Below, piece after piece: positions 12,034-35,345 of a stretch of 64,000 nucleotides of DNA. A model generated the notes under the pieces. The model did not search any database, was not told the DNA's origin, and saw nothing but the letters and a program-made list of their open reading frames with translations. This DNA is from Candidatus Levyibacteriota bacterium (GTDB lineage Bacteria > Patescibacteriota > Microgenomatia > Levybacterales > UBA12049): assembly GCA_963790825.1 (NCBI GenBank), contig CAWBPM010000004.1, positions 94,987-158,986 of the forward strand, written 5' to 3'. The position numbers and the translations under genes were made by a program. Position 1 is the first letter of the stretch. Each line of letters begins with the position of its first letter.

Positions 12034-12036
12034 AAT

Positions 12037-14652: not shown

Positions 14653-14675
14653 AAAATATTGTATATTTTATTACG

Positions 14676-18400: not shown

Positions 18401-21400
18401 TTAAGTAGCAAGTTGTTCAGTCGTACTAGATAATCCTTTATAGAAGCTGGCGAATAAGGCCCCAAAGAAATCAAGCCATGATTCTCCTCGGGAAAATCTG
18501 GCCAGAAAATTCGCGCCAATCGGTTTTTCGACGTGTTTTTTCCACTGTTTCGCAGTAAGAAATCTGCCTTCGCGCACCTGAAGAGTCGCCTCATCATTAT
18601 TAATATTCTCTGTCACATATTTTTCGGGGCTTGTCATAAAAAACTCTCTGATCAGCTGGATCATGCCGTCAGAATATTTAGATACCGTGCTTTTTTTGTT
18701 AATATGCTCCAGGATATCCTGGCGTACAGTATACATAAGTATATTTTTGGCTAAATCAAATGAGCCGTCTGCACTCACCTTAGCCCGTTCGCTTCCCCAG
18801 ATTCTCCGCTCTTCCGGCGTTTGGCTATCCTGTACATTTTTTTCATCATATATTCCCATTTTCAGCAGTTCCGGTCCGAACATATGCTGAGCTACTGTAA
18901 TATCTTCAAATACCAAATCGCCTTTATGCTCTGGATCTTTCCTCCATGACCGTATCTTATGAGCATAGGGAATTTTCGTCATTTCTATATACCGGCAATT
19001 TTTATATATTTCACCCAAAACCTTTTCCCGAAAACCGGGTTCTACCACTAATCTTCCTAGGTAATCATAATGCAGGTTTTTTTCAAACTCAAAGCCCTGC
19101 CCATGCCGGATAAACTCTCCGAAATCGACCGCATTTAAAAAGTGGATGCCGGCATACCTATTTTCCGCGTCTCCTGGACACTCAAATTTCTGGTATTTCA
19201 TTTGCGTCAGATCAACTTCGCTTCCTTCTCCGCCCTGGAGCACCTCGGCAAGTGTTTTGGTAAAATCATCTCCCCCCAAGGGACGCATGCGAAGTGCATC
19301 AAACATGCTCAGCATAACATGCTTTAAGCCTCTCAGCGTTTGCGGATTGCCAATTTCGTTTTTATTTGTTTGGTTTTCACGAAAGGCTTGGAAATTCATA
19401 AATCTGGTCGGAGCAACAAAAGCCCTGGAGCCGGTTTCCTGCTTCGCGTCAACGATGAAATACTGAGCAAGGTTTTTTGCCCAACCTTTGGCATAGACAA
19501 CCTCGTCGCTGTCAAGTCTCAAGTTTTTACAGACTGCATCTGAAATCGCATCTTCGACATAAGTGGTTATGTCTTTGGGTATGTCAGCTTCGTTAAAGAT
19601 ATTTAGGTTTTCCAGTTTCAATCTCCCTTGCCCGTCAGTACTGCTTTTTGTTCCTAAAATAGCTAAAGCGAATTTTTCGTTATTAATTTTTTTGTTATTA
19701 CTGCCTTTTCCAAAACCGAAGTAGTCCCGGGGATCCTCAGTGACTCTTGACCCTCTTGTTCCTGGATTTAAATCTGCCAACTTACTGAGAAATTCCTCCT
19801 TAACACTATCCCTAACTGTTTTAGCATCTTCTTGTCTGATTTTATCTTTTTCCTCGTCTGTTAAGCGTGTCCTTTCTGCTCGTTCCCTTACGGCAATCCG
19901 CATCTCGGATAATTCCTTCATGCTGGCAAAGGTAATCTTAAATTCTCCTTCCCCAACCGCATCCTTTTTGGCTATTTCACCAATATACTCATCTACGATA
20001 AGCAGTCTCGACTCTAGGAGGGCATCGTCTTTAAATTTTTCTTCCGTCTTCTTTTTCTCTGCCTTAAGTATACCGAGAACATATTCTTTGTATTGCTGTT
20101 TATAGTAGACATTTGTGTCCATAATGCTGGCAGCCAACGATTGCCAGAAGACATCAATTCCCCGATCAATTACTACAGGCTCCAGATGCTTCTGTCCATG
20201 AGAGTCAGTAAGCTCGCGGTAGAGGACTCTCTTCTCTTTATACTCTGTACCCCGTTTTATGACCGTTCGCTGCTCCCGAACCAGCTTAACCAGTCCCTTT
20301 TCTGTAACTATCTTGCCCTTTTCCATAAGAACCGGTTCTAAATATTCCCCATCTGAAGATTGTACTTTCCGGTAAAGGGTCTCTTCTTTTTCCATTTTCT
20401 CTCCTTCTTTTACCTTTTCAGCGTCATCGCTAGCATAACCCAGCTCAATTAGTCCGTCCTGGGTAACCGTACCGTCGCCCAGAAGTTTTATAAATAGGTT
20501 CCTGTTCGTTACTGTCGGTCTGTTATCTTGACCGTAAATAATTTCTCCATTTTCCCCGTCTCCTCTTCTTTTATAGTTTTCTGCCCGCCGGAACGTATTA
20601 TGTGAGAGTTCTGACATCGCGTTAAACAAAAGTACCTGGGTTTGGATTGCCCGGCCGACTTCTCCTTGTACCTCATCTTCCGTATAATCCCGAAGTTCTC
20701 TTTTATCTCTTCTGGCTAGTTTCAGCATTCGAATACTCCTGGCGCTCTGATTAACATTTCCCGAATCGGTAAAAATGCTTTTTCTCGAGTGGGCCTGAAG
20801 TACTTCCATGTATTTTTTAATATCATTCCTGCCTGCCGTAAAAATATTCACTTGTTTATTGTGGGCAAGCGAGCGGAGCCAGGCCTCGTAGAGAAAGTTC
20901 ATTTTCATTTTCATAAACTCCGGGTCAACCTGAGTATCCCAGCTAGTTTTATAGACAACATTTCCCTCTTCATCTTTTAAAACCTTTTCCTTTTCATCTT
21001 TAACTTCTGCAATATGGACTCTTTTGCGTCTGGAATATTGGTTGATTTTGATCATTTCTAAAAGTGAGATTTGGGCAAAATAGGTAGGAACGCTGGTTAA
21101 AGACAGAAGGTCTACCTCGCTCATTCCGGCGGAAGCAATTTCCTCAACCGACCGCTTCCGAACCCAAGAGAGAAAATTATGGTACTGAATTTCGCCGCTG
21201 CTATCAACAATTTCATGCGATCCGCCGATGTGATATTCAGGTCCTGCATAGCTCATAAGTCGGAAGAGAAGTTGATCTAAATTTCTCGGCTGGACCTGAA
21301 AATCATACTCTTCGCTGTTTGGCGTATCATCTTTAAAGTATTTTTGTAAATCTAATGCTTCTATTTGTGTTGTTCTTTGTTTAAGCTGCTTAAGCGTCAG

Positions 21401-22753
21401 GCTGCTGGGATCTTCCTGCATAATCTCCTGGAATTGTTTTTGCATGTCGGGCGTGACGGTCTCAAGATGCCCCATATTTCGCCTGACATCCGTAATCCGC
21501 AGACGAAGACCATTATACTGGCGTCGCGCGTCGTCCAATAAACGACTCTGTTTTTCTATGGGGAATAAGTTATTATCTTCAATCTTTTTGATTTCTTCTA
21601 TTCTATATCTTACCTGCGCACCTAGAGACATACCGAAGATAACAGCATCTTCTTCTGTCATGTTGGCAATCCCCCGTCTCGCCGCCTCTGACGCGACATC
21701 CCCTCCTCGCATCGTTCCTGCCAGAAGCCTTGGCAACACATCGCGAAAAAAAGTATTCAATGCTTCTGTATCGACATTGCTGTCAATTAATGCATTAAAA
21801 TTATTTAAATGCGCCTCTACTCTTGGATCGGACAAATCCATTAACCTTCCGTCAAGTGCGCCGGTAATCCAAGCTCTTTTCATCGCCCTTGCACATTCGG
21901 ATTTTCTATCGGCAGGCGCCCTGAGAAATGCTTCCTGCAACCCTCGATTCAGGTCGCTAAGCCGCTCTTCTTCTGTCTGTCCCGCTGCTCCTCCTTGCTG
22001 CGATTTATTCAGTGTATCAGCAATTAGATCTTCATATCCTCGCGGCTGAGGAGGAATATTTGGATTAGAAGGATTCATTTGGAAAAATCCGGGCTCTAAT
22101 CCCCGATCTGTTTGCATAATGATTTCTGCTTGTCTTTGTATCTCCGGCGGAAGCACTCCCTGAAGTCTCTCTAAATCTTTAGGGGGTAATTGAGGTGTAA
22201 TCATCCTTGCTTGTTCACGCTTTTTATCTACTTCTCCAAAAAATTTGTCAACAGGAATCTCTTGACCTCTTACAGCCTTCATAATAAGTGTTCTAGCATC
22301 AATTGAAACACGCTCTAGCTCGGGATTTACTCTTTCAGCTTCTCTTTCTAACGGTGATTGCATTTGCAAATAGAGATCTGCAAGCGTACCCATATCTAGT
22401 GTTACTAGAGACGGATCTTCACTGGTTCTTTCCTTAAATGCTCTTAGTAAATATCTTGCTTCGGGGTCTCTAATATCACTCTCCTGTATGAGAATCGGGT
22501 GATCCGACCTAGGTTTTTCTTGAAGTTGTGTTTCTCGCCTACCCAGTTGTCCGTCTGCATTTCCTTCCTGCGCCATATTAATATCTCCTCTTAGTCTAGC
22601 ATAGCCTGCCTGAGGACGCGGTGTCAATTTAATAGGCATTTCCCCTTCAATACTCCTGAAGACTTCGGTTACATTTGGCGTAATAAGCCTCTCTCCTTCG
22701 ATGCGAGGCGTAAATGATTGCGTGCGAATTGGCATCCCTTCTTTCATAGCCAC
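18401..22753 (-). CDS. Giant (1450 aa) highly charged hypothetical protein, no signal peptide or TM helices
   Basis: Uninterrupted 4.35 kb ORF, Glu/Lys/Arg/Asp-rich, with an internal repeat LYRKVQSSDGEYLEPVLMEKG / LYRELTDSHGQKHLEPVVIDRG. No Walker motifs or known domains recognised. Confidence 0.6.
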   Translation of the reverse strand: MAMKEGMPIRTQSFTPRIEGERLITPNVTEVFRSIEGEMPIKLTPRPQAGYARLRGDINMAQEGNADGQLGRRETQLQEKPRSDHPILIQESDIRDPEARYLLRAFKERTSEDPSLVTLDMGTLADLYLQMQSPLEREAERVNPELERVSIDARTLIMKAVRGQEIPVDKFFGEVDKKREQARMITPQLPPKDLERLQGVLPPEIQRQAEIIMQTDRGLEPGFFQMNPSNPNIPPQPRGYEDLIADTLNKSQQGGAAGQTEEERLSDLNRGLQEAFLRAPADRKSECARAMKRAWITGALDGRLMDLSDPRVEAHLNNFNALIDSNVDTEALNTFFRDVLPRLLAGTMRGGDVASEAARRGIANMTEEDAVIFGMSLGAQVRYRIEEIKKIEDNNLFPIEKQSRLLDDARRQYNGLRLRITDVRRNMGHLETVTPDMQKQFQEIMQEDPSSLTLKQLKQRTTQIEALDLQKYFKDDTPNSEEYDFQVQPRNLDQLLFRLMSYAGPEYHIGGSHEIVDSSGEIQYHNFLSWVRKRSVEEIASAGMSEVDLLSLTSVPTYFAQISLLEMIKINQYSRRKRVHIAEVKDEKEKVLKDEEGNVVYKTSWDTQVDPEFMKMKMNFLYEAWLRSLAHNKQVNIFTAGRNDIKKYMEVLQAHSRKSIFTDSGNVNQSARSIRMLKLARRDKRELRDYTEDEVQGEVGRAIQTQVLLFNAMSELSHNTFRRAENYKRRGDGENGEIIYGQDNRPTVTNRNLFIKLLGDGTVTQDGLIELGYASDDAEKVKEGEKMEKEETLYRKVQSSDGEYLEPVLMEKGKIVTEKGLVKLVREQRTVIKRGTEYKEKRVLYRELTDSHGQKHLEPVVIDRGIDVFWQSLAASIMDTNVYYKQQYKEYVLGILKAEKKKTEEKFKDDALLESRLLIVDEYIGEIAKKDAVGEGEFKITFASMKELSEMRIAVRERAERTRLTDEEKDKIRQEDAKTVRDSVKEEFLSKLADLNPGTRGSRVTEDPRDYFGFGKGSNNKKINNEKFALAILGTKSSTDGQGRLKLENLNIFNEADIPKDITTYVEDAISDAVCKNLRLDSDEVVYAKGWAKNLAQYFIVDAKQETGSRAFVAPTRFMNFQAFRENQTNKNEIGNPQTLRGLKHVMLSMFDALRMRPLGGDDFTKTLAEVLQGGEGSEVDLTQMKYQKFECPGDAENRYAGIHFLNAVDFGEFIRHGQGFEFEKNLHYDYLGRLVVEPGFREKVLGEIYKNCRYIEMTKIPYAHKIRSWRKDPEHKGDLVFEDITVAQHMFGPELLKMGIYDEKNVQDSQTPEERRIWGSERAKVSADGSFDLAKNILMYTVRQDILEHINKKSTVSKYSDGMIQLIREFFMTSPEKYVTENINNDEATLQVREGRFLTAKQWKKHVEKPIGANFLARFSRGESWLDFFGALFASFYKGLSSTTEQLAT

Positions 22754-22818: not shown

Positions 22819-24231
22819 TTAGCTTACGAACTTAAAACCGCGGCCCTTTATGGTTATGAGATGGGCGGGAAGATTCGGATCGTCCTCAATTTTCTTTCTG
22901 ACTCTAAAGATAAGCTGATCTACTGCCTGATCCGTTACTCCGGCAGTAGAGCGAAACGCCGACCAGACAATCTGGATTATTTGCTCCCTGTCCACAATTT
23001 CATCCGGATGACTGAGGAGAAATTGCAGCAACCTAAATTCCGAACCGGTCAGCCGGTCTGAGAGAACTATCTTCCCTTTACGAATCGTATTGGTTGTGCT
23101 GTCATATGTTATTTGTTCATTTTGTGACGGCGTATTTCGCAGCTCCAAATCGAGAAGCACGCTAAAAAGCGGAATCTGTATTTTCCTTTCCTTGATAAAT
23201 CCGATATTGGAAAAGTAGGCTGCAGTAAGCTTGTCCTCTTCGTTACCCGGGAAATCACCGAGAATAAAACGCTGCTCTTCGGGAGAAAATGAGCGCCAGA
23301 TCTCCAAGAGTGCCCCCCGAACCGGCCGATGGGTACAAAGCCAGGATGCAAATTTCGTTCCTTTTGTCACCTCATTATTTTCAGTTTCCAAAACCGTTTC
23401 CATACACAGTCTGGTCAGCTTGCCGTGTCCCGCAGTCAGCTGCAAAATGCTAGTATAAAGAGACTCCGGCAATTTTTCCTCTGATACCTTTTCTAGATAC
23501 TCCGTCCTAAATTTCAGAAGCGACTTATCCTGAACATTCATATAGACAATATTTCCGGCTAAAAATTCATGAAACTCCGCAAAAAGTACCGGCTCTACTA
23601 TATCTTCAAGCGGTTTATTTAAAGAAAAAATGACTGAAAAACGGTATTTGGCCCGGTTACGAAGCACCCGAAGATTGGCAAAAAAATCCGAAGTTAGCAT
23701 CGGGACATATTCCTCGAACCGGTCAAAAAGGAAAACTATGGTCAACTCTTTTTCTATTGCCAGAAAATCAATCGCCCGTTTTAAACCCTGAAAGAGTACC
23801 AGCTCGTCCTCAAGAAGCAGACTTTCTTTGAAAATTTCAGTTACCGCCTGGTATTCTGTCAGCATACCTCGTTCTCTGAGAGAATCCGTCAAGGAAAGAA
23901 AAAGGAATTTTGTCACGTCGTAGAGATTTCGCCGTCTGACTTCTGAAAAACTAACAAGCATAAAGTGCATCCATTTCTCATTCTCTCCGAGATGTTTCTG
24001 CCTGCCTGCTTTGTTAAAAACCAGAAACTTCAGGAGATTTCCTCTACCAACTCCGGGTAGACCGACGAGCTCTACGGAACTTCCCCGTTGGATAAATTTC
24101 AATAAACCCGAGACTTCCTGAAAATAAGAATCTTCGGGGTAAAGCGATTCAAATCTGGTGGGTTCAATGGGTTGTGCTATTCTTTTTTGCATCATATATC
24201 TTATTGTACTGCGCCTCAAAGCTTTCTTCAA
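22819..24231 (-). CDS. Transcriptional regulator: N-terminal P-loop-like NTPase domain fused to a C-terminal OmpR/PhoB-type winged-helix DNA-binding domain
   Basis: C-terminus LTGSEFRLLQFLLSHPDEIVDREQIIQIVWSAFRSTAGVTDQAVDQLIFRVRKKIEDDPNLPAHLITIKGRGFKF matches trans_reg_C. N-terminal VGLPGVGRGNLLKFLVF is a glycine-rich loop lacking the canonical Lys. Divergent from the first pilin gene. Confidence 0.6.
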   Translation of the reverse strand: MKKALRRSTIRYMMQKRIAQPIEPTRFESLYPEDSYFQEVSGLLKFIQRGSSVELVGLPGVGRGNLLKFLVFNKAGRQKHLGENEKWMHFMLVSFSEVRRRNLYDVTKFLFLSLTDSLRERGMLTEYQAVTEIFKESLLLEDELVLFQGLKRAIDFLAIEKELTIVFLFDRFEEYVPMLTSDFFANLRVLRNRAKYRFSVIFSLNKPLEDIVEPVLFAEFHEFLAGNIVYMNVQDKSLLKFRTEYLEKVSEEKLPESLYTSILQLTAGHGKLTRLCMETVLETENNEVTKGTKFASWLCTHRPVRGALLEIWRSFSPEEQRFILGDFPGNEEDKLTAAYFSNIGFIKERKIQIPLFSVLLDLELRNTPSQNEQITYDSTTNTIRKGKIVLSDRLTGSEFRLLQFLLSHPDEIVDREQIIQIVWSAFRSTAGVTDQAVDQLIFRVRKKIEDDPNLPAHLITIKGRGFKFVS

Positions 24232-24259: not shown

Positions 24260-25102
24260 ATGGTTTATTCTGAATATATGAGAAAAATAGATTTACTTTT
24301 TATTATTCCACTTTTTCTACTGGCATTTTTACTGCTTTCCTCAGTTTCTTCAGCCGCCGACCCAACCGCCCCTCCAGCCCCAACAGCCGTACCTCCCACT
24401 CCCACCCCTACAAGATCTTTCACTATTTCAGTACAGCCTCCTGATGAAGTTCATATTACCCAAAGCGTTATTGTCACAGTAATTCAAGCTCCTCCTGACC
24501 ATCTGAGTGGAGGAGGTACATATAATATTCTTTTTATGCAATTAGATAATATACTGCAAAATTGCAATGGATTCTCCTGTGCCGGTTTTGGACCATTACA
24601 TTGTCCTACTGTTAGTTGTACATTTCCTCCCTATCAAGTTCTACTCGGTCCTGCCAGTATACTCATCATTCGTGTCACCTCTGCCGATACCGCCCCATAC
24701 GAAATAGATAAAGAGCTGACGATAAATGGCTCTGTCCCCACACCAACTAACGTTCCCACTTCTCCTACAGAAATTCCCCCCCCGCCTGCCTGCACTACTC
24801 CGGGTACCGGAGGAGAATGTGCTGGTGTCGACACCGCTATTGGACCGGCAAGCACCACGCCGAATGAATTGATCACTACTATTATGAGAATACTCCTTAG
24901 TATTTCAGGCGGTATCGCATTGCTTCTTTTAATCTATGCGGGTTATAAAATCCTCACTTCCCGCGGAAATCCTGAAACAGTAAAAGGCGCTCGGGAGCTG
25001 ATCACCTCGGCAATTGCAGGACTTCTCCTTATTATTCTCTCCCTGGTCATCCTGGAAGTACTGGGAGTTGACATATTGCACATCCCAGGATTTAGCCATT
25101 AG
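24260..25102 (+). CDS. Secreted protein with Pro/Thr-rich linker, globular domain and C-terminal VirB2/TrbC-like pilin domain
   Basis: Signal peptide, PTAPPAPTAVPPTPTPT linker, a Cys pair (PPPACTTPGTGGECAGVD), then SISGGIALLLLIYAGYKILTSRGNPETVKGARELITSAIAGLLLIILSLVILEV (two hydrophobic helices around a charged loop). Contains a C8 tract. Confidence 0.6.
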   Translation: MVYSEYMRKIDLLFIIPLFLLAFLLLSSVSSAADPTAPPAPTAVPPTPTPTRSFTISVQPPDEVHITQSVIVTVIQAPPDHLSGGGTYNILFMQLDNILQNCNGFSCAGFGPLHCPTVSCTFPPYQVLLGPASILIIRVTSADTAPYEIDKELTINGSVPTPTNVPTSPTEIPPPPACTTPGTGGECAGVDTAIGPASTTPNELITTIMRILLSISGGIALLLLIYAGYKILTSRGNPETVKGARELITSAIAGLLLIILSLVILEVLGVDILHIPGFSH

Positions 25103-25135
25103 AAAAGTAAACTCTACTTGCATTTCACCCGAATA

Positions 25136-26353
25136 ATGGTTTACTCTAAAAGTGTGAGAAAAAATGTTTATGTTGTTTTATATATAGTTATATTCGTTTT
25201 TGTTGGTTTTATTTTAGATACTGTTTTCTTTAGCGAAAAAGACTACGCTAATTCAGATTCTGATCAGGCGATTCTTACTTGTGCACAAGTTATACATGCG
25301 CCGGATTTTAAGACCTGTACAGGAACTATTGAAGATACTACTACCGGTACTGCAATACCCACTGCTATACTACATTTACACGTTAAGAGTACTAGTGATG
25401 GGGACCAGACATATCCCCTGACAAGTGCCAATGCGCTTCTTCAGCAGGAATTTACTCAACCACAAGACGGCTCCTATAAATATTGCGCCTACGCGAACGG
25501 TAGCCCGGGAGCCCCAAGCATAATATCTGTTTTTGCGAGTGCTATCGGATATGATGATAGTAACTCGATCGATATTCCCGGTACTACTGTGTGTCCACCA
25601 GGCGGAACAATTAAATTAACAAAGAAAGCTGCCGGTTCTCCTCTTGGCTACTATTGTACTATTCCTAATGGAGCACAACTAACAGACCACAATGCCAACT
25701 CCAGTTGTCAACAAGCACCACTAGATCCTGAAATTGCCCCTCATGTAACGATAGTGGGCTCTAATGTATACGCAACTGTAGATGCTTGCACTAATAATTG
25801 CAAAAAAGTCTTCTATGACAAAGAAATACCGGGAGGAGCATGTGGTATCGTGGGCCCTGATTTCTGGAACACGTATGTTCCCGCCATTGAAATCCTTGCT
25901 TGGTCGATGGATACATGTACCGCAACACAGCAATCCGGAGGAAATCCCCCAGCTACCGCTCCGCCTACCAACACCCCCGTTCCTCCTACTCCCACATCTA
26001 CTCCTCTTCCTCCCGAGCCGGCATGCACCCATAACACGGGTGGGGAATGTCCAAGTGTGGATACAGCACTCGGAGTAATTAATGTTGGCGCAGGAGGCGA
26101 AGTGGGCAACGAAGGAATAGTAACCAGCATTATGGGAGTGCTTCTCAGTATCTCGGGAGGACTTGCGCTGCTTCTGATTATTTACGCGGGATACAAACTA
26201 CTTACCTCCGGCGGAAATCCTGACACAGTAAAAGGCGCACGGGATCTCCTGACTGCGGCAATTGTAGGACTTTTGTTTATTATTCTCGCTCTGGTTGTCT
26301 TGCAGGTTATCGGCGTTGATATCCTGCATATACCAGGCTGGACTGGTGTCTAG
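25136..26353 (+). CDS. Paralogous larger secreted protein with C-terminal VirB2/TrbC-like pilin domain
   Basis: Starts MVYSKSVRK, like its neighbour (MVYSEYMRK). PPATAPPTNTPVPPTPTSTPLPP linker, EPACTHNTGGECPSVD Cys pair, C-terminal SISGGLALLLIIYAGYKLLTSGGNPDTVKGARDLLTAAIVGLLFIILALVVLQV. Track start 25118 is TTG, trimmed to ATG. Confidence 0.6.
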   Translation: MVYSKSVRKNVYVVLYIVIFVFVGFILDTVFFSEKDYANSDSDQAILTCAQVIHAPDFKTCTGTIEDTTTGTAIPTAILHLHVKSTSDGDQTYPLTSANALLQQEFTQPQDGSYKYCAYANGSPGAPSIISVFASAIGYDDSNSIDIPGTTVCPPGGTIKLTKKAAGSPLGYYCTIPNGAQLTDHNANSSCQQAPLDPEIAPHVTIVGSNVYATVDACTNNCKKVFYDKEIPGGACGIVGPDFWNTYVPAIEILAWSMDTCTATQQSGGNPPATAPPTNTPVPPTPTSTPLPPEPACTHNTGGECPSVDTALGVINVGAGGEVGNEGIVTSIMGVLLSISGGLALLLIIYAGYKLLTSGGNPDTVKGARDLLTAAIVGLLFIILALVVLQVIGVDILHIPGWTGV

Positions 26354-26374
26354 TTGAGTATATATAATAATTCT

Positions 26375-26692
26375 ATGCAAAAACTCTTAGCTTTATCTCT
26401 TCAAGGAACACCGATTGCAGCCCCCGGTAACGTTCCCACCGGCGGATTATCGCCAAATGGTTGGAATATTATCTATACGGGAATCTCTATTTTTCTCCTT
26501 ATTATAGTGGCTCTGGCTCTCATATTTCTCATTTGGGCGGGCATCAGGCTTACCATGTCGGAAGGAGATAAGGCAAAGGTTGATGCATCGAGAAAGCAGG
26601 CAATCTACTCCATAGTCGGACTCGTTATCGCCCTTTTGGCATTTGCCATTATAAATATCGTCGGCAATCTGTTTGGAGTACAGTTGTTCTGA
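26375..26692 (+). CDS. Small VirB2/TrbC-like pilin
   Basis: IYTGISIFLLIIVALALIFLIWAGIRLTMSEGDKAKVDASRKQAIYSIVGLVIALLAFAIINIV: two TM helices flanking a charged loop. Track start 26354 is TTG. ATG at 26375 is preceded by a TATATAAT -10-like box. Confidence 0.55.
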   Translation: MQKLLALSLQGTPIAAPGNVPTGGLSPNGWNIIYTGISIFLLIIVALALIFLIWAGIRLTMSEGDKAKVDASRKQAIYSIVGLVIALLAFAIINIVGNLFGVQLF

Positions 26693-26780
26693 GCTTTTTA
26701 GCACACATTTTACTTGCAATTATTTAACAACCTGCAATATACTAATCTTCTAGGCGCAATATGCCTCATCTATCCTTTAT

Positions 26781-28281
26781 ATGTCAAAAAAAGTAAAAAT
26801 AATATTTCTTGCACTCTGTTTGTTCTTTTTTATACTTTTTGCCTTCATAGGAGTCCTTAATCTAAGCATCGATTTCGGCTGGTACTTACGCATCGGAGAC
26901 ATTATATTAAACCATGGTTTTCCTAAAACTGATCCGATGATCTACTCCATGCCCAGCTATCCCTTTATTGACCACGAGTGGCTGGTTGAGGTTATAATTG
27001 CTTTACTTTACCCCTATGTTAAATTACTGGGAATCTCTGCTCTTTTTTTCCTTAATCGCCGTAGTATCGGTAGCATTGCCGGTTTACGCGTTCCGCTTAT
27101 ATCGCTATTGGCTCTTTATCCCCTTACTTCTGGCTTTAAGTACTCTTTTCTTCTACGAAGGGATCGCTATTGAAATGACCAGCTGGTTCTTCGTGTCCCT
27201 TCTCATAACTATCCTATTAAAAAATACTCTGTGGAAAAAGGTTAAATATTTAGTACCTTTTCTTTTTCTTCTCTGGGCAAATATACACGGCAGCTTTCCT
27301 TTGGGCATCGTTCTTTTATTGCTTTTTATAGGAGTACGCACAGTTACCGAAAGGAAGATTCTTCTATCTGATATTTTCGTCTTATTGAGCAGCATTTTCA
27401 TAACTCTTGTTAATCCGTACGGCATTAATCTTTGGCATGAAGTATGGATGCAGATGTCAGATACCGCGGCGCATCAGACAATTTCGGAGTGGCAGCCGCT
27501 GCTTTTCTCCGATGGATTTCATTTGCCTATACTTTGGGTGCTGTTAGTACTGGCAAGCTTTCTGTTCGTATTTTATAGAAGGCGGTACTCTGTTCTGGAG
27601 TTTGTGTTTTTTTTATTCTTTCTTCTCCTTGCTTTCAGCGCAAGAAGACAACTTCCGTTTTTGCTAATTTATTCGATGCTACCCATATATAGGGGCATTG
27701 GCTTTCTCTCCGCTGATGCCGTAAAGATAAAATATGGCGCGCTGCGGCTTCGAAACGGCATACTGCTCCTTATCGCCATAGTTCTAGTTCTTTCGTGTAT
27801 AGAGTTATTCTTCGGATTTCGTAATGCAATTCTTAATCCTTTGGTTATCTATCCTAATAAGGCAATTGTCTATTTGGAAAACCACCCCACTTCCGGACAA
27901 ATATTTTCAATTAACGAATGGGGCGGATATCTGGAATGGAAATTACCACAAAAACAGATATTCTCAGATGGCTTGACAGAAACTTGGAGGTGGCATGCTC
28001 CAAATTCGAAAGAAAGCGATAATGTGTTTATGGAGTATAAAAACATTATTCAGGGAAAAATTACGCTAAGTAGTACTGTTGAAAAATATAACATTGATAC
28101 GCTTCTTCTTTATAAACAGCAAACAATTAGCAAGCCGAATCCTCCGTTTATAAAATTTATAGATGCATTTTTACCGAATAAGAAAAAGACAAATAAAAAA
28201 TCAATATATACCCAAATAGAACAAATGGGATGGAAAATCGTCTATAAAGACAGTGTCGCGGTCATTTACCGCAAGCAATAA
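26781..28281 (+). pseudogene. GT-C-fold-like polytopic membrane protein split by a +1 frameshift at a T7 homopolymer (ORFs 26781..27173 and 26998..28281)
   Basis: Both frames read through TCTTTTTTTC (27043-27049). Upstream frame gives ...DHEWLVEVIIALLYPYVKLLGISAL, downstream frame continues FFSLIAVVSVALPVYAF... with at least 10 further TM helices. Removing one T fuses them into one protein of about 500 aa. Confidence 0.45.
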
Positions 28282-28405
28282 AGATACTCAGATGGCAGAC
28301 CTATATTAATTTTGCTCATTGTTTAGCCTTAGAAGCACCTCTTGACAAGAAGAAAATTCTATTGCAATAATAGATATAGATTAAATAAATCGAAACAATA
28401 AATAT

Positions 28406-28825
28406 ATGAGTACACAATTAAAAAAATTTGCAATCATTTCCTCAACAGTAGTACTTTACACATTAGCTGCTTCCCAGACTTTTGCTGCTGGTGCTGCTAG
28501 CTTTGGATCGGGGTGTAATGGTAGTTTTAGTGCTCTTTGCGGTAACAGCGCATCATTTGCTACTATCTTTAGTTGGGTTGTTAATCTCTTGTTCTTTGCT
28601 GCAATCGCAATTGCGCTTATCTTCTTAATTTGGAATGGTATTCGCTGGATTCTTTCCGGTGGAGATAAAGGAAAAGTTGATGAGGCAAGAAAAGGTGTTA
28701 TTGCAGCTCTGATTGGGCTTGTGGTTGCACTTGTTGCCTATTTCATCATCAATCTTGTATTAAATCTCTTGGGACTGGGTGGACTAAATTCTCTTAGTGT
28801 TCCCTCTATTACTCTTCTCTCTTAG
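28406..28825 (+). CDS. VirB2/TrbC-like pilin with signal peptide
   Basis: Signal peptide FAIISSTVVLYTLAASQTFA, Cys pair (SGCNGSFSALCGNS), then LLFFAAIAIALIFLIWNGIRWILSGGDKGKVDEARKGVIAALIGLVVALVAYFIINLV. Confidence 0.6.
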   Translation: MSTQLKKFAIISSTVVLYTLAASQTFAAGAASFGSGCNGSFSALCGNSASFATIFSWVVNLLFFAAIAIALIFLIWNGIRWILSGGDKGKVDEARKGVIAALIGLVVALVAYFIINLVLNLLGLGGLNSLSVPSITLLS

Positions 28826-28966
28826 TCTTTTTAGTTCTTAATTCTAACTTCTCTTCTTTATTGTAAGTTCTTCTACTCGTGATTGCGCTTGCCGCCCTGC
28901 CATAATTCGCTTTATTTATAGTAAGTTATATTCCTAAAAGCATATTTTTATGACATAATTTAGCAA

Positions 28967-30154
28967 TTGAGCAATATGTTTCTTTTTAAACACAGAATTT
29001 TACTCTTGCTTTTACTTCCATTAACCACAGTCCTTTTATATTGTTTTATCACAAACTTTTATTCCCTTTTCCCCTTGCAAACTTTCAGTTATTTCAATAA
29101 CTATAATCACTACATTGCTGATCCCCGCGCATCCGGTCAAAAATTTAATTTATTATTGTCGTTAGCGCCAGCTGATGCTCAGTGGTATTTAAAAATTGCT
29201 GATTCAGGCTATCCCATCCGTCCCCGTGTTATTTACTCCGGCAGTCACCAGACAATAGACGGCGCTACCTATGCCTTCTTCCCGCTCTATCCAATTACCA
29301 TCGCACTCGTTAATTTCTTTTTGAAAAACATTGTGTTATCTGCTTTTATTCTTACGCAATTACTATTCCTTCTTAATATTGTCAGCCTTTACTATGTCAT
29401 AAAGAAGTTGTATAACGAACAACTGGCCATAAAGACCTTGTTTCTCCTCTTTTTATTTCCTTTCAGCATTTTCTTTCGCAGTTATTTCAGCGAAAGTCTC
29501 TTTCTTTTGGAACTCATTTGGTTTAGTTATTTTCTTATTAAAAAAAGGCTATTTATAAGCTCTCTCCTGCTTGGCTTACTGCTTGTAACCCGCGGGAATG
29601 GATTATTCTTGCTGCCTGTCTTCTTTTGTGTTGTGTTTAGAGATGTGCAAAATCGTCGGTTATTTATTAAAAAGAGTATTCTGTATGGTTTTATTTTAAT
29701 ACTACCATTTTTAGCTTGGATCGCTTATTGCTACCTGCAAACAGGAAACGGTTTCTATTTTATTATTGCCAGAAAAGCCTGGTTCCAATATCCTTTTCCG
29801 CTTCCTCTTTTTTATAACATAGCATTGGTACTGCTTGTACGATACTTGCCCTTTCATTTCTTTCATCTCTCGCAACTTGATGTTTTTTTTGTAGTTCTCG
29901 ATATGATACTCTTGGTTTTTTCGAAAAAGTTTCTCCGTCCCGTACTTTGGTGGGTAGCATTTACTCTTTGGATAAGTCCTCTGTCAACTCAGGACGCCAT
30001 GTCCTCCACTAGGTTTCAAATTATCTACTTTCCCCTTTTCATCTATGCAGCGTATATACTAAAAGGAAGATGGTACTTGGCAACGCTTGTCTTCTTTTCT
30101 ATATGTCTGCTCATCGTATCTCTTCTTTTTGTTAACTGGTATTGGATAGGATAG
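28967..30154 (+). CDS. Polytopic membrane protein, GT-C-type glycosyltransferase-like (PIG-V/GT76-like WY..IA..GY motif)
   Basis: 395 aa, about 10 TM helices. First extracytoplasmic loop LAPADAQWYLKIADSGYP resembles the WDA..Y..IA..GY loop of PIG-V-type mannosyltransferases. Confidence 0.45.
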   Translation: MSNMFLFKHRILLLLLLPLTTVLLYCFITNFYSLFPLQTFSYFNNYNHYIADPRASGQKFNLLLSLAPADAQWYLKIADSGYPIRPRVIYSGSHQTIDGATYAFFPLYPITIALVNFFLKNIVLSAFILTQLLFLLNIVSLYYVIKKLYNEQLAIKTLFLLFLFPFSIFFRSYFSESLFLLELIWFSYFLIKKRLFISSLLLGLLLVTRGNGLFLLPVFFCVVFRDVQNRRLFIKKSILYGFILILPFLAWIAYCYLQTGNGFYFIIARKAWFQYPFPLPLFYNIALVLLVRYLPFHFFHLSQLDVFFVVLDMILLVFSKKFLRPVLWWVAFTLWISPLSTQDAMSSTRFQIIYFPLFIYAAYILKGRWYLATLVFFSICLLIVSLLFVNWYWIG

Positions 30155-30753
30155 ATATTGTACCTTTACCCAATAATCATTGCTATACTTTAGAAATAAT
30201 GATTGTCTTCAAATTCTTAATCATTGCTTTTCTCCTCCTCGTCGCAGCGATTCCCCTAGCGCTTATCGCTGCTTTCTTCTTCGGACCACCCTTCATTCCG
30301 ACCCCTAAAAAAACAGTAAAAGAAATGGTTGCGCTTGCCGGTATTTATAAAGGGGATACAGTACTGGACATGGGCTCTGGAGACGGCAGAATGCTCCTAG
30401 AAGCAGCGAAATGCGGAGCACGCGCAGTTGGCTGGGAAATTAATCTCTACCTTGTTTTATGGACAAAAATATTAGCATATCGTTATGGCGTTAATAGACT
30501 AGTAGAAGTCCATTGGGGAAGCTACTATCAGGCGGATTTTTCAAAAGCAAATGTCGTCTTTCTCTATGGTATTACTCACGAAATGGAAAAAATTGAACAG
30601 AAACTGCAAAAAGAGTTAAAACCTGGATCGAAAGTTATTTCTTATACGTTTGTTTTCCCGCATCTCAAGCCGACTAAAACCCTTTCCGAAAATTACTGTC
30701 TATACTATCGCCTGATTTCTTTCCTGCTATTATACTTATTGTATTTTATTTAA
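30142..30753 (+). CDS. Class I SAM-dependent methyltransferase with N-terminal TM anchor
   Basis: Motif I VLDMGSGDGRML, then an acidic post-I loop (AVGWEIN). N-terminal hydrophobic helix FLIIAFLLLVAAIPLALIAAFFF. Confidence 0.65.
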   Translation: MDRIDIVPLPNNHCYTLEIMIVFKFLIIAFLLLVAAIPLALIAAFFFGPPFIPTPKKTVKEMVALAGIYKGDTVLDMGSGDGRMLLEAAKCGARAVGWEINLYLVLWTKILAYRYGVNRLVEVHWGSYYQADFSKANVVFLYGITHEMEKIEQKLQKELKPGSKVISYTFVFPHLKPTKTLSENYCLYYRLISFLLLYLLYFI

Positions 30754-30774
30754 AGAGGAGTATACAATTAGCCT

Positions 30775-31095
30775 ATGGACTGGAGTTCTATTCCGGGATG
30801 TATTGGGGCACTAGGCGAAGCGCATTTACAATGCTTGCCGGCAGTGTTCCAAAATCTTATAAACGGCGCGCTTATTTTGGCAGGAATCGCTGCGGTTATT
30901 TTTATCATTCTTGCCGCGTACCGACTGATAACCTCCCGGGGAAACCAGCAAGGAGTAAGCAAAGCCCGGAAAACGCTTATCTTTGCAATTGCCGGTTTGG
31001 TAATTATTTTATTATCCTTTTTCCTGGTTAATTTTCTGGCAAATATTACCGGAACAAATTGCATCACCCAAATGGGCTTTACCAATTGCCAATAA
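30775..31095 (+). CDS. VirB2/TrbC-like pilin
   Basis: Cys pair GCIGALGEAHLQC, then LILAGIAAVIFIILAAYRLITSRGNQQGVSKARKTLIFAIAGLVIILLSFFLVNFL. GGAGG located 13 nt upstream of the ATG. Confidence 0.6.
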   Translation: MDWSSIPGCIGALGEAHLQCLPAVFQNLINGALILAGIAAVIFIILAAYRLITSRGNQQGVSKARKTLIFAIAGLVIILLSFFLVNFLANITGTNCITQMGFTNCQ

Positions 31096-31261: not shown

Positions 31262-32611
31262 ATGGATAATCACCCGATTCCGCAAGACGTTACCGGATTT
31301 CAATTTAAACTTGTGGGCAGTATGACCGTAAAGCAATTTGCCCAACTTGCGGGGCCGTGCATTATAGCAGTTATTCTTTATTATTCCCCTTTTTTTATTC
31401 TGATAAAAATTATCGGTATTCCGTTTTTTGTTCTTTTCGGGCTTTGTCTCGCATTTGTTCCGATAGAAGGCCGTCCGATTGACGTGATGGCATCGCATTT
31501 CTTAAGAGCCCTTTTCGCTCCTAATCAATTTGTCTTCCATAAAATAGGGAGGCAGTTGGCATTTACTACTGTAGATTTAAGGCGTACTGCCAAAGAAAAG
31601 GTCTCTGTACATATTGATCCTCTAAAAAAAAAGCAACTTCAGGCATTTTTACAAAACGTTCAGAGTAGACCACAAAGCCCGTCTGACTCAAAAGAAGATG
31701 AGTTTCTTAAGTCTCTTGATTCGATCCAATTTCAAGGACCGGTTCTTTTGCCCGCTTCTTCGCCAATGCAGCAGCGAGGAGAGGCGGCTTCGCCAATAAG
31801 CACCAACCCCTTGCCTCCACAACCGCAAATGCCGCCAACAAAAAACATTGCGCAAACACAAAATCAGGCTTCCTTAAATCAACAAACAGCAGCACCTATG
31901 GACAATGTTAAGCCGGATATCCCCCTACCACAGATGGTTAAGCCATCAACTGCTGCTCAATCTATAAACTCGTCTTTGCCGTATGTTCCGCAGCCGAATA
32001 GTCTGCCTCAGAAGAATATTGACTCTACGCCAAACCCAAAGGAAAGTTTAGGACAGGAAGAACAACCCGAGTATAAGGAGACTGAGCAATTATCGCAAAA
32101 ATTAGATGATATCGCTCATGAGAAACAGAAACTAGAAGATGAGCTTCGGGCTTTAAAGAGTCAATTAGCCGGTCGGCAAACAGTTTCTGTTCCTATTGCC
32201 AAACCTGTAGATAGACAGGTAGAACAACCGGCTCAGGAGGAAGACAGCCCACATGTTTTGAAAGTACCAAAGTCCCTGACTACCAGCATTGGGGCTCCTG
32301 CTATGCCTGATTCTCCCAATCTCATTGCGGGCGTTGTGAAAGACCCAAGAGGAAATGTTCTGCAAAATATTCTGGTAGAGGTAAAAGATAAAGAGGGCAG
32401 TCCTGTTCGGGCGTTTAAAACCAATGCGCTGGGTCAATTCTCCTCAGCAACGCCACTAATAAATGGCGATTATACTATAGAATTTGAAGATCCAAAGGAT
32501 CAACATAAATTTGATACGATTGAACTCAGGGCGAGTGGCGAGATTATGTTGCCCATCGAAGTGATCTCGAGAGATGCGCGGGAGGAGTTGAGGCGCGCGT
32601 TATTTACCTAA
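31262..32611 (+). CDS. PrgI/VirB3-like membrane protein with long Pro/Gln-rich region and C-terminal domain
   Basis: N-terminus IPQDVTGFQFKLVGSMTVKQFAQLAG followed by two TM helices resembles PrgI-family (VirB3-like) proteins. Sits directly upstream of the VirB4-like ATPase, as in Gram-positive-type T4SS. Confidence 0.5.
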   Translation: MDNHPIPQDVTGFQFKLVGSMTVKQFAQLAGPCIIAVILYYSPFFILIKIIGIPFFVLFGLCLAFVPIEGRPIDVMASHFLRALFAPNQFVFHKIGRQLAFTTVDLRRTAKEKVSVHIDPLKKKQLQAFLQNVQSRPQSPSDSKEDEFLKSLDSIQFQGPVLLPASSPMQQRGEAASPISTNPLPPQPQMPPTKNIAQTQNQASLNQQTAAPMDNVKPDIPLPQMVKPSTAAQSINSSLPYVPQPNSLPQKNIDSTPNPKESLGQEEQPEYKETEQLSQKLDDIAHEKQKLEDELRALKSQLAGRQTVSVPIAKPVDRQVEQPAQEEDSPHVLKVPKSLTTSIGAPAMPDSPNLIAGVVKDPRGNVLQNILVEVKDKEGSPVRAFKTNALGQFSSATPLINGDYTIEFEDPKDQHKFDTIELRASGEIMLPIEVISRDAREELRRALFT

Positions 32612-32612
32612 T

Positions 32613-33254
32613 ATGAATACACCTGTCCAAAAAATTCACGCTTCAACGCAAAAGTTTACTGAAATTCAGGATATTTTTGATACCGTGGTGATACTAAACG
32701 GCGGTAATGCCTGCTTAGTTATCGAAGTTACTGCCAGTAACTTTGCTCTCTTATCCAGACAAGAGCAGGATATGAAAATCTTTTCCTATGCTTCGCTGTT
32801 AAATTCTTTAACCTTTCCGATTCAAATACTTATCAGAAACGAAAAGGTCGATATTACGTCCTACTTAAAGTCTCTTGAGGAAGCTGAGAAAAACACTCAA
32901 AACTCCCTGCTTCGCAAAAATATTGGCTTCTACCGGAATTTTATCAAAGAAATGATTTTGGTCAATACGGTTCTCAATAAACGGTTCTATATTGTTCTTA
33001 ACTTTTCCTCTCTGGAGGCAGGACCTACCGGCGTAAGCTTGACCGATAAAGTAAATTTCGCCCGGGTTGCCAAAAAAATGCTTGAGTCCAAGGCAGATTC
33101 CCTGCTTCCTGAGCTGCAAAAAATTTCTTCTTCCTCAAGGGTACTAGAGAAAGATGAGCTGGTAAAACTTTTTTATGAAATTTTCAATCACGAAGCAGTT
33201 GATGCTACTCAGGTAGCAGCAGATATAAAAGTGCCGATTATTACTAGTCATTAG
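32613..33254 (+). CDS. Hypothetical T4SS-associated protein (resembles the non-ATPase N-terminal region of VirB4/TrbE proteins)
   Basis: 213 aa with no TM helices. DTVVILNGGNACLVIEVTASNFALLSRQEQDMKIFSYASLLNSLTFPIQILIR is reminiscent of the VirB4 N-terminal domain. Translationally coupled (2-nt gap) to the PrgI-like gene. Confidence 0.4.
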   Translation: MNTPVQKIHASTQKFTEIQDIFDTVVILNGGNACLVIEVTASNFALLSRQEQDMKIFSYASLLNSLTFPIQILIRNEKVDITSYLKSLEEAEKNTQNSLLRKNIGFYRNFIKEMILVNTVLNKRFYIVLNFSSLEAGPTGVSLTDKVNFARVAKKMLESKADSLLPELQKISSSSRVLEKDELVKLFYEIFNHEAVDATQVAADIKVPIITSH

Positions 33255-33275: not shown

Positions 33276-35345
33276 ATGAAATTATTTGGAAAGAAAACAA
33301 CAGCGGAAACGACAAAAGCAAATTCCACAACTGACGGAAAGGGCGTTAAGCAGTTGGAAAAGGGAACCGTGTCTTTGGTAGATATTATTGCTCCGTCTTC
33401 AATTGAAGTAGATTTTAGATTTATCCGGGTTGGAGAAACATTTTATACAACTCTTTTTATCGTTGGTTATCCGAGATTCGTCTCCCCCAGCTGGCTTGAG
33501 CCGCTTATCGACTTTGACCATACGCTGGATATCTCAATGTTTGTTTATCCAACGTCAGGAGCCGACGTACTTACGGATTTACGGCGTAAGATCGGCGAAA
33601 TGGAGGCAACGCTCATGTCGGACGCAGAAGCAGGAAAACAGGAAGATCCGACAGTTGCAGCAGCCCTAGAAGATGCGAAGTCGCTCCAGGAAGAACTGGC
33701 TAAGGGTATTGAGCGTTTTTTTCAATTTAGCTTTTATATTAAAATCTCTTCAGACAATATCATTGATCTACACGATACAACCAAAAGGCTGAAAACGACA
33801 CTCTCCTCTCTCCTTTTAACCGCCAAAAATGCAACCTTGCAAATGGAGGAAGGTTTTAAATCAACCATGCCGCTGGGCTCTGACAAGCTTTATATGCCGC
33901 GAAATATGGATACCACGTCTCTCGCTTCCACGTTTCCTTTTACTTCGGCAATTTTAACCCAGAACAAGGGCGTCATGTATGGTCTTAACCAGCAAAACGG
34001 TTCGCTCATTATCTTTGACCGGTTCTCTCTGGAAAACGCCAATGAGGTTGTGTTGGGAAAATCGGGCGCAGGGAAATCGTACCTTATTAAACTTGAAATT
34101 ATGCGCCAATTTATGTTGGGAGCCGAGGTATTTGTGATCGACCCTGAGGGAGAATATGGAACGCTGGCACAGGGACTAGGCGGTGAGACAGTGGAATTTA
34201 GCCCAAACGCACCGGTTAAGATAAATCCGTTCGATCTTTCAGAGCTGTACGAGGAGGGTGAGAATGAACTGGGGCTAAAAATTCTTTCGCTTCATGGGCT
34301 ACTTAAAATTATCATGGGTGAACTTGACGCCGAACACGATGCAATCTTAGACCGGGGTATTATCGAGACATATCGACAAATGGGAATCACAACCGATCCG
34401 GAAACGCAGAAACGTACACCACCGCTTCTTGAGGATTTATATAAAACACTTTTGGGCTATGAGTCGGCACCAGCCCGCGATTTGGCGTACAGGCTTGAAA
34501 AATTTATCAAGGGTTCTGCTGCCGGCATTTTTAATCAGAGATCAAATTTTGATATTACTAATCCTTTGACTGTTTTCAGTATTAAAAATTTAGAAGAAGA
34601 GCTCCGCCCGGTTGCCATGCATATCATCCTCGATTTTATCTGGACCAAAGTGAAGCGGTCGCTTAAAAAAAGAATTTTAGTTCTGGACGAGGCATGGTAT
34701 ATGATGAAATATGAGGATTCTGCATCTTTTGTCTATTCAATTGCCAAACGGGCCAGGAAATATTATCTTGGATTAACAACCGCTACGCAGGATGTTGAGG
34801 ATTTTTTAGGGACCGACTACGGAAAGGCAGTGCTAACAAATTCATCTATTCAAATGTTATTAAAGCAAAGTGGTGCCGGAGTTGATCTGGTTTCAGATAC
34901 ATTCTTTTTATCGGAGGGTGAAAAAGAATTATTACTATCGGCAGATATAGGAGAAGGGTTATTTTTCGCTGGGCAAAATCATGTTGCAATAAAGGTAGTT
35001 GCAGCGCCATTTGAACATGAGTTTATTACCTCAAATCCGGCAGAACTTCTAAAAAGGCAGCAAGCAGGACTTGCGCAAGTTACCCAACCACAACCACTAC
35101 AACAACAGATGCCCCAACAACCACCAGCCAATCCTCTATCATCATCTAATCAAACCCCACCTATCCGTCCGACATATATGGGTCAGGCACCGACAAACAA
35201 TACGATGGGAGGCTATCCGATGCAGACCGGCCAATCTACTCCGAATCAACAAATACCGCAGAATAATACTCCCCCCCAGACTCAATCTCAATTACCAGGA
35301 CAGCCCCTACCACCTCAACCTCCTCCATCTTTACCTAACCACTGA
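33276..35345 (+). CDS. virB4: VirB4/TrbE/PrgJ-family type IV secretion ATPase
   Basis: Gram-positive-type VirB4 N-terminus (IAPSSIEVDFRFIRVGETFYTTLFIVGYPRFVSPSWLEPLI), Walker A VLGKSGAGKSYL, Walker B ILVLDEAWYMM, and a Pro/Gln-rich low-complexity C-terminal tail. Confidence 0.8.
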   Translation: MKLFGKKTTAETTKANSTTDGKGVKQLEKGTVSLVDIIAPSSIEVDFRFIRVGETFYTTLFIVGYPRFVSPSWLEPLIDFDHTLDISMFVYPTSGADVLTDLRRKIGEMEATLMSDAEAGKQEDPTVAAALEDAKSLQEELAKGIERFFQFSFYIKISSDNIIDLHDTTKRLKTTLSSLLLTAKNATLQMEEGFKSTMPLGSDKLYMPRNMDTTSLASTFPFTSAILTQNKGVMYGLNQQNGSLIIFDRFSLENANEVVLGKSGAGKSYLIKLEIMRQFMLGAEVFVIDPEGEYGTLAQGLGGETVEFSPNAPVKINPFDLSELYEEGENELGLKILSLHGLLKIIMGELDAEHDAILDRGIIETYRQMGITTDPETQKRTPPLLEDLYKTLLGYESAPARDLAYRLEKFIKGSAAGIFNQRSNFDITNPLTVFSIKNLEEELRPVAMHIILDFIWTKVKRSLKKRILVLDEAWYMMKYEDSASFVYSIAKRARKYYLGLTTATQDVEDFLGTDYGKAVLTNSSIQMLLKQSGAGVDLVSDTFFLSEGEKELLLSADIGEGLFFAGQNHVAIKVVAAPFEHEFITSNPAELLKRQQAGLAQVTQPQPLQQQMPQQPPANPLSSSNQTPPIRPTYMGQAPTNNTMGGYPMQTGQSTPNQQIPQNNTPPQTQSQLPGQPLPPQPPPSLPNH

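Follow-up and report, generated by a model that had tools for sequence, protein, structure and literature searches.

The window analysed here, a 64,000-nucleotide stretch of contig CAWBPM010000004.1 (assembly GCA_963790825.1), carries an array of five pilin-like genes, pil1 to pil5, all on the + strand and within 6.8 kb, the last of which ends 2.2 kb upstream of a virB4 gene (Table 1). We regard the region as probably the pilin array of a chromosomal, monoderm-type type IV secretion system (T4SS), in which four classes of pilin would form a heteromeric filament or conduit and one of them, class A, would bear a replaceable host-binding domain. What the analysis shows is the family to which the proteins belong, their topology and genomic context, the positional orthology of the paralogs and the turnover of the N-terminal domains (N-domains); every step of the mechanism set out below is a proposal.

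The VirB4 protein of the window is 63–79% identical to proteins in 80 genome loci, with most informative titles naming Levybacteria/Levyibacteriota or unclassified Patescibacteria, and through these relatives we place the organism among the Levybacteria (Patescibacteria, or candidate phyla radiation, CPR). Patescibacteria account for a large part of bacterial diversity, and most are thought to be attached to other microbes. The same 80 loci served as our comparison set: open reading frames (ORFs) were called in them and searched with a hidden Markov model (HMM) of the C-terminal module that the pilins share. This yielded 212 pilin modules from the window and the 80 loci together, typically three to seven per locus and upstream of virB4, and clustering of these modules on all-against-all scores gave the classes used throughout.

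Family membership, topology and gene context

All five proteins score above the curated gathering threshold of the Pfam family PF18895 (T4SS_pilin; 26.6 bits), at 27.0–36.9 bits, and the same domain is precomputed on database homologs of the window pilins. In NCBIfam all five match best to NF045849, the Mbov_0395 family of pilin-like conjugal transfer proteins from Mycoplasma integrative and conjugative elements (ICEs), with 16.7–31.3 bits against a curated cut-off of 40 (E 1.2e-7 to 4.3e-3 across the five paralogs); by E-value the match is significant in four of the five (E 1e-7 to 2e-4), all below that cut-off. Together the sequence matches support the assignment of the five proteins to one pilin-like family of a T4SS. 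The first-pass annotation of this DNA, made from the letters alone, had described five paralogs with a common C-terminal module, and that family holds up, gene boundaries and loops included, at scores far beyond chance. The closer likeness to the Mycoplasma ICE family hints that the gene may have come with the monoderm system and not from diderm systems, which bears on a question left open in the retrieved passages of PMC12102498.

The C-terminal 75–95 residues of all five align as helix, charged loop and helix, the loops being RGNPETVKGAR, GGNPDTVKGAR, EGDKAKVDASR, GGDKGKVDEAR and RGNQQGVSKAR. Hydropathy peaks of 2.2–3.2 flank the net-basic loop in every protein and define two strong hydrophobic segments; the shared fold is a two-helix membrane hairpin, with N and C termini outward and the short basic loop in the cytoplasm. 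Module identity between pil1 and pil2 is 65% in a trimmed alignment and 73% over the HMM-defined module, compared with 23–44% (trimmed alignment) for the other pairs. No sixth copy was found when the module HMM was run over all window ORFs of at least 45 amino acids (aa). Conserved lysine residues are carried by the pilin loops.

The first two proteins are long. Pil1 consists of a signal segment (residues 12–30), a Pro/Thr linker, a domain of ~100 aa with four cysteines, a second Pro/Thr linker, the pair C178-x8-C187 and the two-helix module (204–278). Pil2 runs from a signal segment through a Cys-rich domain of ~230 aa (ten cysteines), a Pro/Thr linker and the pair C297-x7-C305 to a β-hairpin and the module; in its AlphaFold model a small β-hairpin stands between the Cys pair and the helices, which span 326–357 and 362–396 at a predicted local distance difference test (pLDDT) score of 84–94. 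Ahead of the module lie 198 residues in pil1 and 326 in pil2, the latter counted from the ATG at 25136; the pil2 module occupies 333–405 of the 411-aa ORF that opens at the TTG at 25118, and the Pfam match begins at residue 333 of the 405-aa protein.

Hydropathy marks an N-terminal signal segment in both long proteins. Given this segment and the hairpin topology, the regions before the first transmembrane helix (TM1) must be extracytoplasmic, which fits the even Cys counts of pil1 (6) and pil2 (12). The large N-domains on Pro/Thr linkers that had been attributed to the first two genes are thus borne out, as are their near-identical MVYSxxxRK leaders (MVYSEYMRK in pil1, MVYSKSVRK in pil2; 29 nt at 83%) and a Cys pair before the first helix in four of the five; beside the two pairs already given these are C37-x7-C45 in pil4 and C9-x10-C20 in pil5, and pil3 has no cysteine. 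A second, C-terminal pair is present in pil5 (C96/C105). The signal peptide of pil4 is read from its sequence and the class C consensus, its N terminus being below the hydropathy threshold used, and the class B consensus M.YLALTLPG fits the ATG at 26375 as the start of pil3.

Downstream of the array follow genes for a PrgI/VirB3-like protein, a TrsD-like protein and a VirB4-like ATPase, and the order array, prgI, trsD, virB4 is kept in dozens of Levybacteria chromosomes beside housekeeping genes. As VirB4 is conserved across the 80 loci, mostly of Levybacteria and other Patescibacteria, the locus is a conserved chromosomal system of Levybacteria and not a mobile element. Relaxase and coupling-protein families of Pfam were not found among the 50 window ORFs scanned; these include all listed ORFs of at least 230 aa except two at the 230-aa margin (38151–38894 and 60520–61278) and overlapping frames, together with a minority of those below ~230 aa.

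Pilin classes and the turnover of class A

Class A (pil1 and pil2; 35 members in 31 loci, median 381 aa) takes the first positions of an array and bears the Cys-rich N-domains. Class B (pil3; 38 members in 38 loci, median 111 aa) is mostly third from last and has no cysteine, and class C (pil4; 69 members in 53 loci, median 142 aa) is mostly penultimate, with a signal peptide and, in 57 of its 69 members, a Cys pair. Class D (pil5; 59 members in 59 loci, median 115 aa) has two Cys pairs and is the last pilin, before prgI, in 58 cases. The order is fixed, A and then B, C and D ahead of prgI, trsD and virB4, and each class has its own Cys pattern and its own consensus around a common SGGDKxKVxxAR loop. 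Each window paralog finds its best matches in its positional orthologs elsewhere, the exception being pil1 with pil2.

We read the paralogs as four ancient classes and not as interchangeable copies. Positional orthology and fixed order point to distinct, conserved structural roles, and the class set resembles sets of major and minor pilins. The notion of exchangeable subunits, put forward in the first-pass annotation, does not suit pil3, pil4 or pil5, each of which is the positional ortholog of a class conserved across Levybacteria.

The class A outer domains behave differently from the rest of the locus. Across the 351 locus pairs compared among Levybacteria, VirB4 has a median identity of 71% and the class A module one of 54%; the class A N-domain stands at 22.9%, next to 22.4% in a shuffled control (95th percentile 28.7%). 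In pairs with VirB4 at 91–97% identity, the module retains 72–94% and the N-domain 22–41%, and N-domain length differs in five of six such pairs. Gradual divergence cannot explain N-domains at these values beside so similar a VirB4, so that, judged by these identities, the outer domain must have been replaced wholesale between close genomes, as a cassette on a constant module. Such replacement is as expected of parts that recognise a host. Neither a word-indexed search of 5.8 billion proteins nor a full HMMER scan covering 1.84 billion cluster representatives found a relative of the pil2 N-domain (39–270). Among 62 long homologs the pilin module is present in 61 and a recognisable N-terminal Pfam domain in one, namely SdrD_B, of adhesin type.

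Leaders vary among the long pilins: ~13 of 32 begin with (V/L)YDKxVRK ahead of the signal segment, and the others have ordinary MKK or MRK leaders. Leaders of the former type occur in the window at 24260–24290 and 25136–25166 and in class A genes of loci L046, L054, L055, L063, L064, L066, L068, L069 and L071.

The similar 3′ ends of the genes had also been put forward as a substrate for recombination, a claim that fails in the window and stands at the level of the family. DNA similarity among the window pilin genes is confined to pil1 and pil2, with 229 nt at 74% at the 3′ end and 28–29 nt at 82–83% at the 5′ end, and the longest exact run between any two of the genes is 14 nt (8–13 nt outside pil1/pil2). 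Runs of at most 14 nt are too short for efficient RecA-dependent homologous recombination; the present window sequence is thus a poor substrate, and its pil1/pil2 pair appears old and diverged. Where related genomes have two long pilin genes in tandem, the 3′ ends of the two are 84–100% identical: 349 nt at 100% in L054 (genes at 4190–5584 and 5553–6545); 385 nt at 91% in L044 (genes at 825–2222 and 2173–3741), with an exact run of 289 nt; and 213 nt at 84% in L009, the upstream DNA being unrelated in all three. The L054 and L044 pairs suggest either a recent gene conversion or a duplication after which the domain was replaced; an assembly artefact is possible in these pairs, the identical repeat of L054 included.

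Proposed assembly, rival explanations and known systems

In the model that we favour, hairpins of classes A and C would enter the membrane by Sec and those of classes B and D by YidC, and the VirB4/TrsD/PrgI machine would then extract them and assemble a heteromeric filament or conduit, with classes B, C and D as its dedicated structural subunits. The class A module would serve as an anchor, with its disulfide-rich outer domain held on the Pro/Thr-rich linker, and that domain could bind the host cell on which the epibiont depends. Pilus formation we infer. Four classes, with an optional element whose outer domain is replaced, turn a vague picture of 'variable paralogs' into a testable model. 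Should this model hold, host specificity could be predicted from metagenomes with the class A N-domains as direct markers, and these domains would be the first targets for binding experiments.

A more specific version, which we offer tentatively and think possible but rather doubtful, holds that class A proteins are modular VirB2-type pilins whose swappable, disulfide-rich domains, exchanged by recombination within a constant polymerisation module with its conserved leader, set the host cell to which the filament attaches; they would then be host-range determinants of Levybacteria, glycosylated perhaps by the GT-C enzyme encoded in the array (memA, below). Exchange within a constant module is suggested by the 349-nt identical 3′ ends in L054. 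If true, class A genes would play the role of phage receptor-binding proteins.

Several observations weigh against our proposal. The TrbC family PF04956 scores 14.8–15.1 bits with pil1, pil4 and pil5 (E ~0.03; cut-off 27.9) and does not match pil2 or pil3. Aligned by hhalign with nine annotated VirB2/TrbC proteins from plasmids, the family profile A3 reaches a probability of 9% (E 0.0035), in an alignment that is weak but in register over TM1, loop and TM2. No solved pilin was among the PDB sequences matched by the same profile (hmmsearch), and a Foldseek search of the PDB with the pil2 model gave nothing at E <1, only non-significant helical hairpins, with the archaeal conjugation pilin 8dfu at rank 19 (E 3.9); a helical hairpin is too simple for such a fold search to discriminate. 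Pil3 and pil5 have no recognisable signal peptide. Residues 37–274 of pil2, its N-domain, have a pLDDT below 50 in the AlphaFold model built on 62 homologs, so low because the domain has no relatives, and no fold is assignable; the case for an adhesin comes from location, Cys content and turnover only. Class A is lacking in roughly one related locus of two, the nearest VirB4 relatives of the window among them, and therefore cannot be essential to the machine itself. Finally, the retrieved parts of a 2025 review grant Patescibacteria only a 'potential to elaborate conjugative pili', no pilus having been shown for any of them (PMC12857230). Of the label 'VirB2/TrbC-like pilin' given in the first-pass annotation, membership of the T4SS pilin family survives, on PF18895 and the prgI, trsD and virB4 neighbours, and the VirB2/TrbC part is not established, with PF04956 below threshold, hhalign at 9% and no solved pilin matched by sequence or fold; homology to classical VirB2/TrbC is, by sequence, unproven.

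A rather unlikely alternative is that the proteins stay in the membrane, the hairpin being an anchor or stationary channel subunit and the long forms tethered surface proteins, with no pilus at all. Monoderm MPF-FATA systems, the group of the window VirB4, are described as being without pili in the passages retrieved (PMC12102498, PMC12857230), no solved pilin is matched significantly, and a ligand-binding domain would be equally workable on the cell surface. Four classes in fixed order before prgI, trsD and virB4 nevertheless look more like major and minor pilin sets than like anchors, the loop motif and hairpin dimensions fit the T4SS_pilin family, and the literature, in the parts retrieved, treats such arrays as predicted pilins and reports one as essential (below). 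It is more improbable still that the five genes represent a single pilin in exchangeable variants, shuffled through their 3′ ends to give antigenic or phase variation in this genome. Against this speak the short exact runs in the window, the greater closeness of pil3, pil4 and pil5 to orthologs elsewhere than to one another, and the fixed positions of the classes (class D once per locus, 59 of 59), which indicate distinct conserved roles; in its favour, pil1 and pil2 have a common 5′ leader and 3′ module around unrelated centres, the equivalent 3′ ends in L054 and L044 are 100% and 91% identical, and the published discussion compares such arrays with the VirB2 paralogs of Bartonella and Anaplasma (PMC12102498, retrieved passages).

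We consider it extremely unlikely that the five belong to the holins or lipoproteins, or are small membrane proteins of unrelated kinds, and lie beside the ATPase by chance. Two-helix membrane proteins do match many unrelated membrane families weakly, and there is a gene for a CHAP hydrolase 6 kb downstream, but all five proteins exceed the PF18895 threshold and the arrangement of array, prgI, trsD and virB4 recurs in dozens of Levybacteria chromosomes. Lipoproteins were rejected on the position of the Cys residues, which are not at the ends of signal segments, with no lipobox Cys, and holins on the lack of any PHROG match at E up to 0.01; the pilin reading thus outlives the lipoprotein or holin scenario that the first-pass annotation had raised.

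A pilin array beside virB4 is, as such, already known from Patescibacteria. The retrieved passages of Quinonero-Coronel et al. (2025; PMC12102498) describe 441 VirB2 arrays, found with PF18895 and profiles related to it: sets of 2–11 pilin genes close to virB4 and dnaA, especially abundant in Microgenomatia and with a mean identity within arrays of 25% (maximum 54%). Those retrieved from Wang et al. (2023; PMC10633639) show the array to be essential in Southlakia epibionticum; in this, the one genetically tractable species, the secretion system is essential as well. As far as these passages go, the window conforms in having several divergent PF18895 genes, in tandem or split by non-pilin genes, and a monoderm-type virB4 with prgI and trsD, near dnaA and with no relaxase found; Levybacteria belong to Microgenomatia, the class richest in such arrays, and paralog identities of 23–44% compare with the published mean. 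It departs from them in the pil1/pil2 module, which exceeds the published maximum at 65–73%, and in its fixed classes, where the published arrays are described as variable paralog sets with a suggested adaptation to host strains. Fixed classes, domain-bearing long pilins and domain turnover are not mentioned in the passages retrieved from either paper or in our further literature searches. The four-class architecture, the cassette-like orphan outer domains and a recurrent oligosaccharyltransferase-like enzyme in the arrays are thus additions that we did not find in the searchable literature.

Like classical VirB2/TrbC proteins (Agrobacterium VirB2, RP4 TrbC), the window pilins are small two-helix hairpins with a short basic loop and, in some members, a leader, encoded beside virB3 and virB4 homologs. 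Unlike them, they are without significant sequence or fold match to that group, belong to a monoderm host without VirB5, VirB7, VirB9 and VirB10, fall into four conserved classes instead of one major pilin and have a disulfide loop before TM1. To our knowledge, N-terminal ectodomains of 170–300 aa are not a feature of classical VirB2. The Mbov_0395 family shares the MPF-FATA lineage with the window VirB4, but its protein sits in mobile elements, whereas the window array is multi-class and chromosomal and its pilins are not members. Modular type IV pilins (Streptococcus sanguinis PilB and PilC) and the sets of minor pilins in type IV pili and type II secretion are comparable in working principle alone, in that a conserved polymerisation module displays an extra functional domain and several distinct pilin classes are encoded together. 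A class III signal peptide and one N-terminal helix mark type IV pilins, whose fold and machinery are unrelated to those of the window pilins. We rejected a type IV pilin identity for the five, whose N termini lack the G/(F,M)xxxE motif and whose hydrophobic hairpin is C-terminal.

Genes within and around the array

Table 1. Positions, strands and supporting evidence of features in the window.
Feature	Position	Strand	Description
Low-GC island	~10000–16000		GC content 0.29–0.32 against ~0.42 elsewhere
1450-aa ORF	18401–22753	−	No match in Pfam or by BLAST against most related loci (E limits used)
Regulator	22819–24231	−	470 aa; C-terminal OmpR/PhoB-type winged helix; Pfam Trans_reg_C E 1.9e-17; NCBIfam response-regulator DNA-binding domains
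pil1	24260–25102	+	280 aa; class A, long; PF18895 33.7 bits
pil2	25136–26353	+	405 aa from ATG; class A, long; PF18895 27.0 bits; identical to database protein P0001
pil3	26375–26692	+	105 aa; class B, short; PF18895 32.5 bits
memA	26781–28281	+	Polytopic membrane protein of a GT-C family without annotation; split by a frameshift in a T7 run (27042–27048)
pil4	28406–28825	+	139 aa; class C; PF18895 36.9 bits
memB	28967–30154	+	Polytopic membrane protein; PMT_2 E 0.012; AZOBR_p60025 glycopolymer family E 2.6e-4, below cut-off
Methyltransferase	30142–30753	+	Membrane-anchored (TM segment 13–54); directly upstream of pil5; weak Pfam methyltransferase domains
pil5	30775–31095	+	106 aa; class D; PF18895 34.3 bits
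prgI	31262–32611	+	PrgI/VirB3-like membrane protein; Pfam PrgI 27.1 bits (cut-off 27); CarboxypepD_reg E 1.2e-6
trsD	32613–33254	+	TrsD-like protein, 213 aa; NCBIfam TrsD E 2e-5 over the full model, below cut-off
virB4	33276–35345	+	VirB4-like ATPase, monoderm (CD1110) type; NF045971 380.6 bits (cut-off 325); TraG P-loop E 5.9e-25
Surface-protein ORF	35368–36858		Just 3′ of virB4; single-pass; weak DUF11/isopeptide-domain similarity
24-nt tandem repeat	35750–35836		Within the preceding ORF; 3.6 copies, 100% matches
CHAP hydrolase	37477–38169	+	Secreted peptidoglycan hydrolase; Pfam CHAP 35.8 bits; N-terminal hydrophobic segment
dnaN	39203–40318	opposite to array	With dnaA, ~8–9.5 kb downstream of the array
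dnaA	40568–41977	opposite to array	Beyond dnaN

Three non-pilin genes interrupt the window array: memA, memB and a methyltransferase gene. The memA family (~500 aa) has no Pfam domain and no match to Pfam STT3. The AlphaFold model of its intact homolog P0072 (pLDDT 92) has AglB, STT3 and PglB as top Foldseek matches (E 4.7e-6 to 1.1e-4, TM-score 0.5–0.67), followed by DPY19, ArnT and AftA. The family consensus DPDxGWH after TM1 places an acidic motif, with D29 nearly invariant, in the first external loop; the acceptor-binding motif WWDxG is absent from the family, and WGGYL, with no Asp, stands at the equivalent spot after the last transmembrane helix. By its model, memA has the predicted GT-C fold of an oligosaccharyltransferase and is not a canonical one, and we have not filed it as such since it lacks both the WWDxG motif and the STT3 match. 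Homologs lie within the pilin arrays of L015, L042, L044, L065 and L067, at differing positions and in differing orientations; four of these five loci have complete arrays, all four with class A pilins. This co-occurrence and the Pro/Thr linkers suggest that a memA-type enzyme may glycosylate the pilins. A tblastn comparison with P0072 places the frame change of the window copy at 27040–27053; the frameshift could reflect a pseudogene, an assembly error or phase variation, and the window memA may be inactive.

The likeness of memB to glycosyltransferases consists of weak, sub-threshold matches, and hhalign ruled it out as a relative of memA. No counterpart of memB was found in the 80 loci, and set against these both memB and the methyltransferase occur only in the array of this genome. 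The best NCBIfam match of the methyltransferase is an archaeal protein-lysine N-methyltransferase (E 2.9e-18, below cut-off); a link between this enzyme and the lysines of the pilin loops is speculation.

Scans for promoters and terminators performed no better than on shuffled sequence (29 sites against 23.2 ± 5.3 expected), and we therefore claim no operon structure. The best promoter-like site of the region, by consensus match only, is at 28342–28371, ahead of pil4. On the opposite strand upstream of pil1 lies the gene of a 470-aa protein with ~390 unclassified N-terminal residues, a homolog of which (~48% identity) is the immediate neighbour of the array in 34 related loci, whichever way it is oriented. 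The protein is a candidate for a dedicated array regulator.

Homologs of the PrgI/VirB3-like protein occur in 77 loci. The window protein is unusually long (449 aa), with a Gln/Pro-rich middle and a C-terminal immunoglobulin-like domain of CarboxypepD_reg type. The TrsD-like protein, with homologs in 78 loci at ~53% identity, matches positions 101–279 of the Mycoplasma ICE VirB4 model (E 3.9e-7), and the window VirB4 begins at about position 178 of the CD1110 model. These two matches suggest that the N-terminal domain of VirB4 is encoded by a gene of its own, the TrsD-like one, which is conserved in the 78 loci.

Between virB4 and the CHAP hydrolase gene lie genes for variable surface proteins. 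The 24-nt repeat in the surface-protein ORF just 3′ of virB4 encodes a stretch of ~14 Gly-Thr dipeptides and is a candidate for length variation by slippage. The CHAP hydrolase is a candidate for a VirB1-like role, its membership of the system being judged by position. The rest of the window is housekeeping in character (yidC, pgk, fba, ruvB, dnaG, an aminoacyl-tRNA synthetase and a Mur ligase).

On the other side of the array, the 1450-aa ORF has only three weak partial matches (22–29% identity). The low-GC island encodes three glycosyltransferases, one of family 2 and two of family 4, together with a DegT-type aminotransferase; it resembles a gene cluster for surface glycans, possibly one acquired by horizontal transfer.

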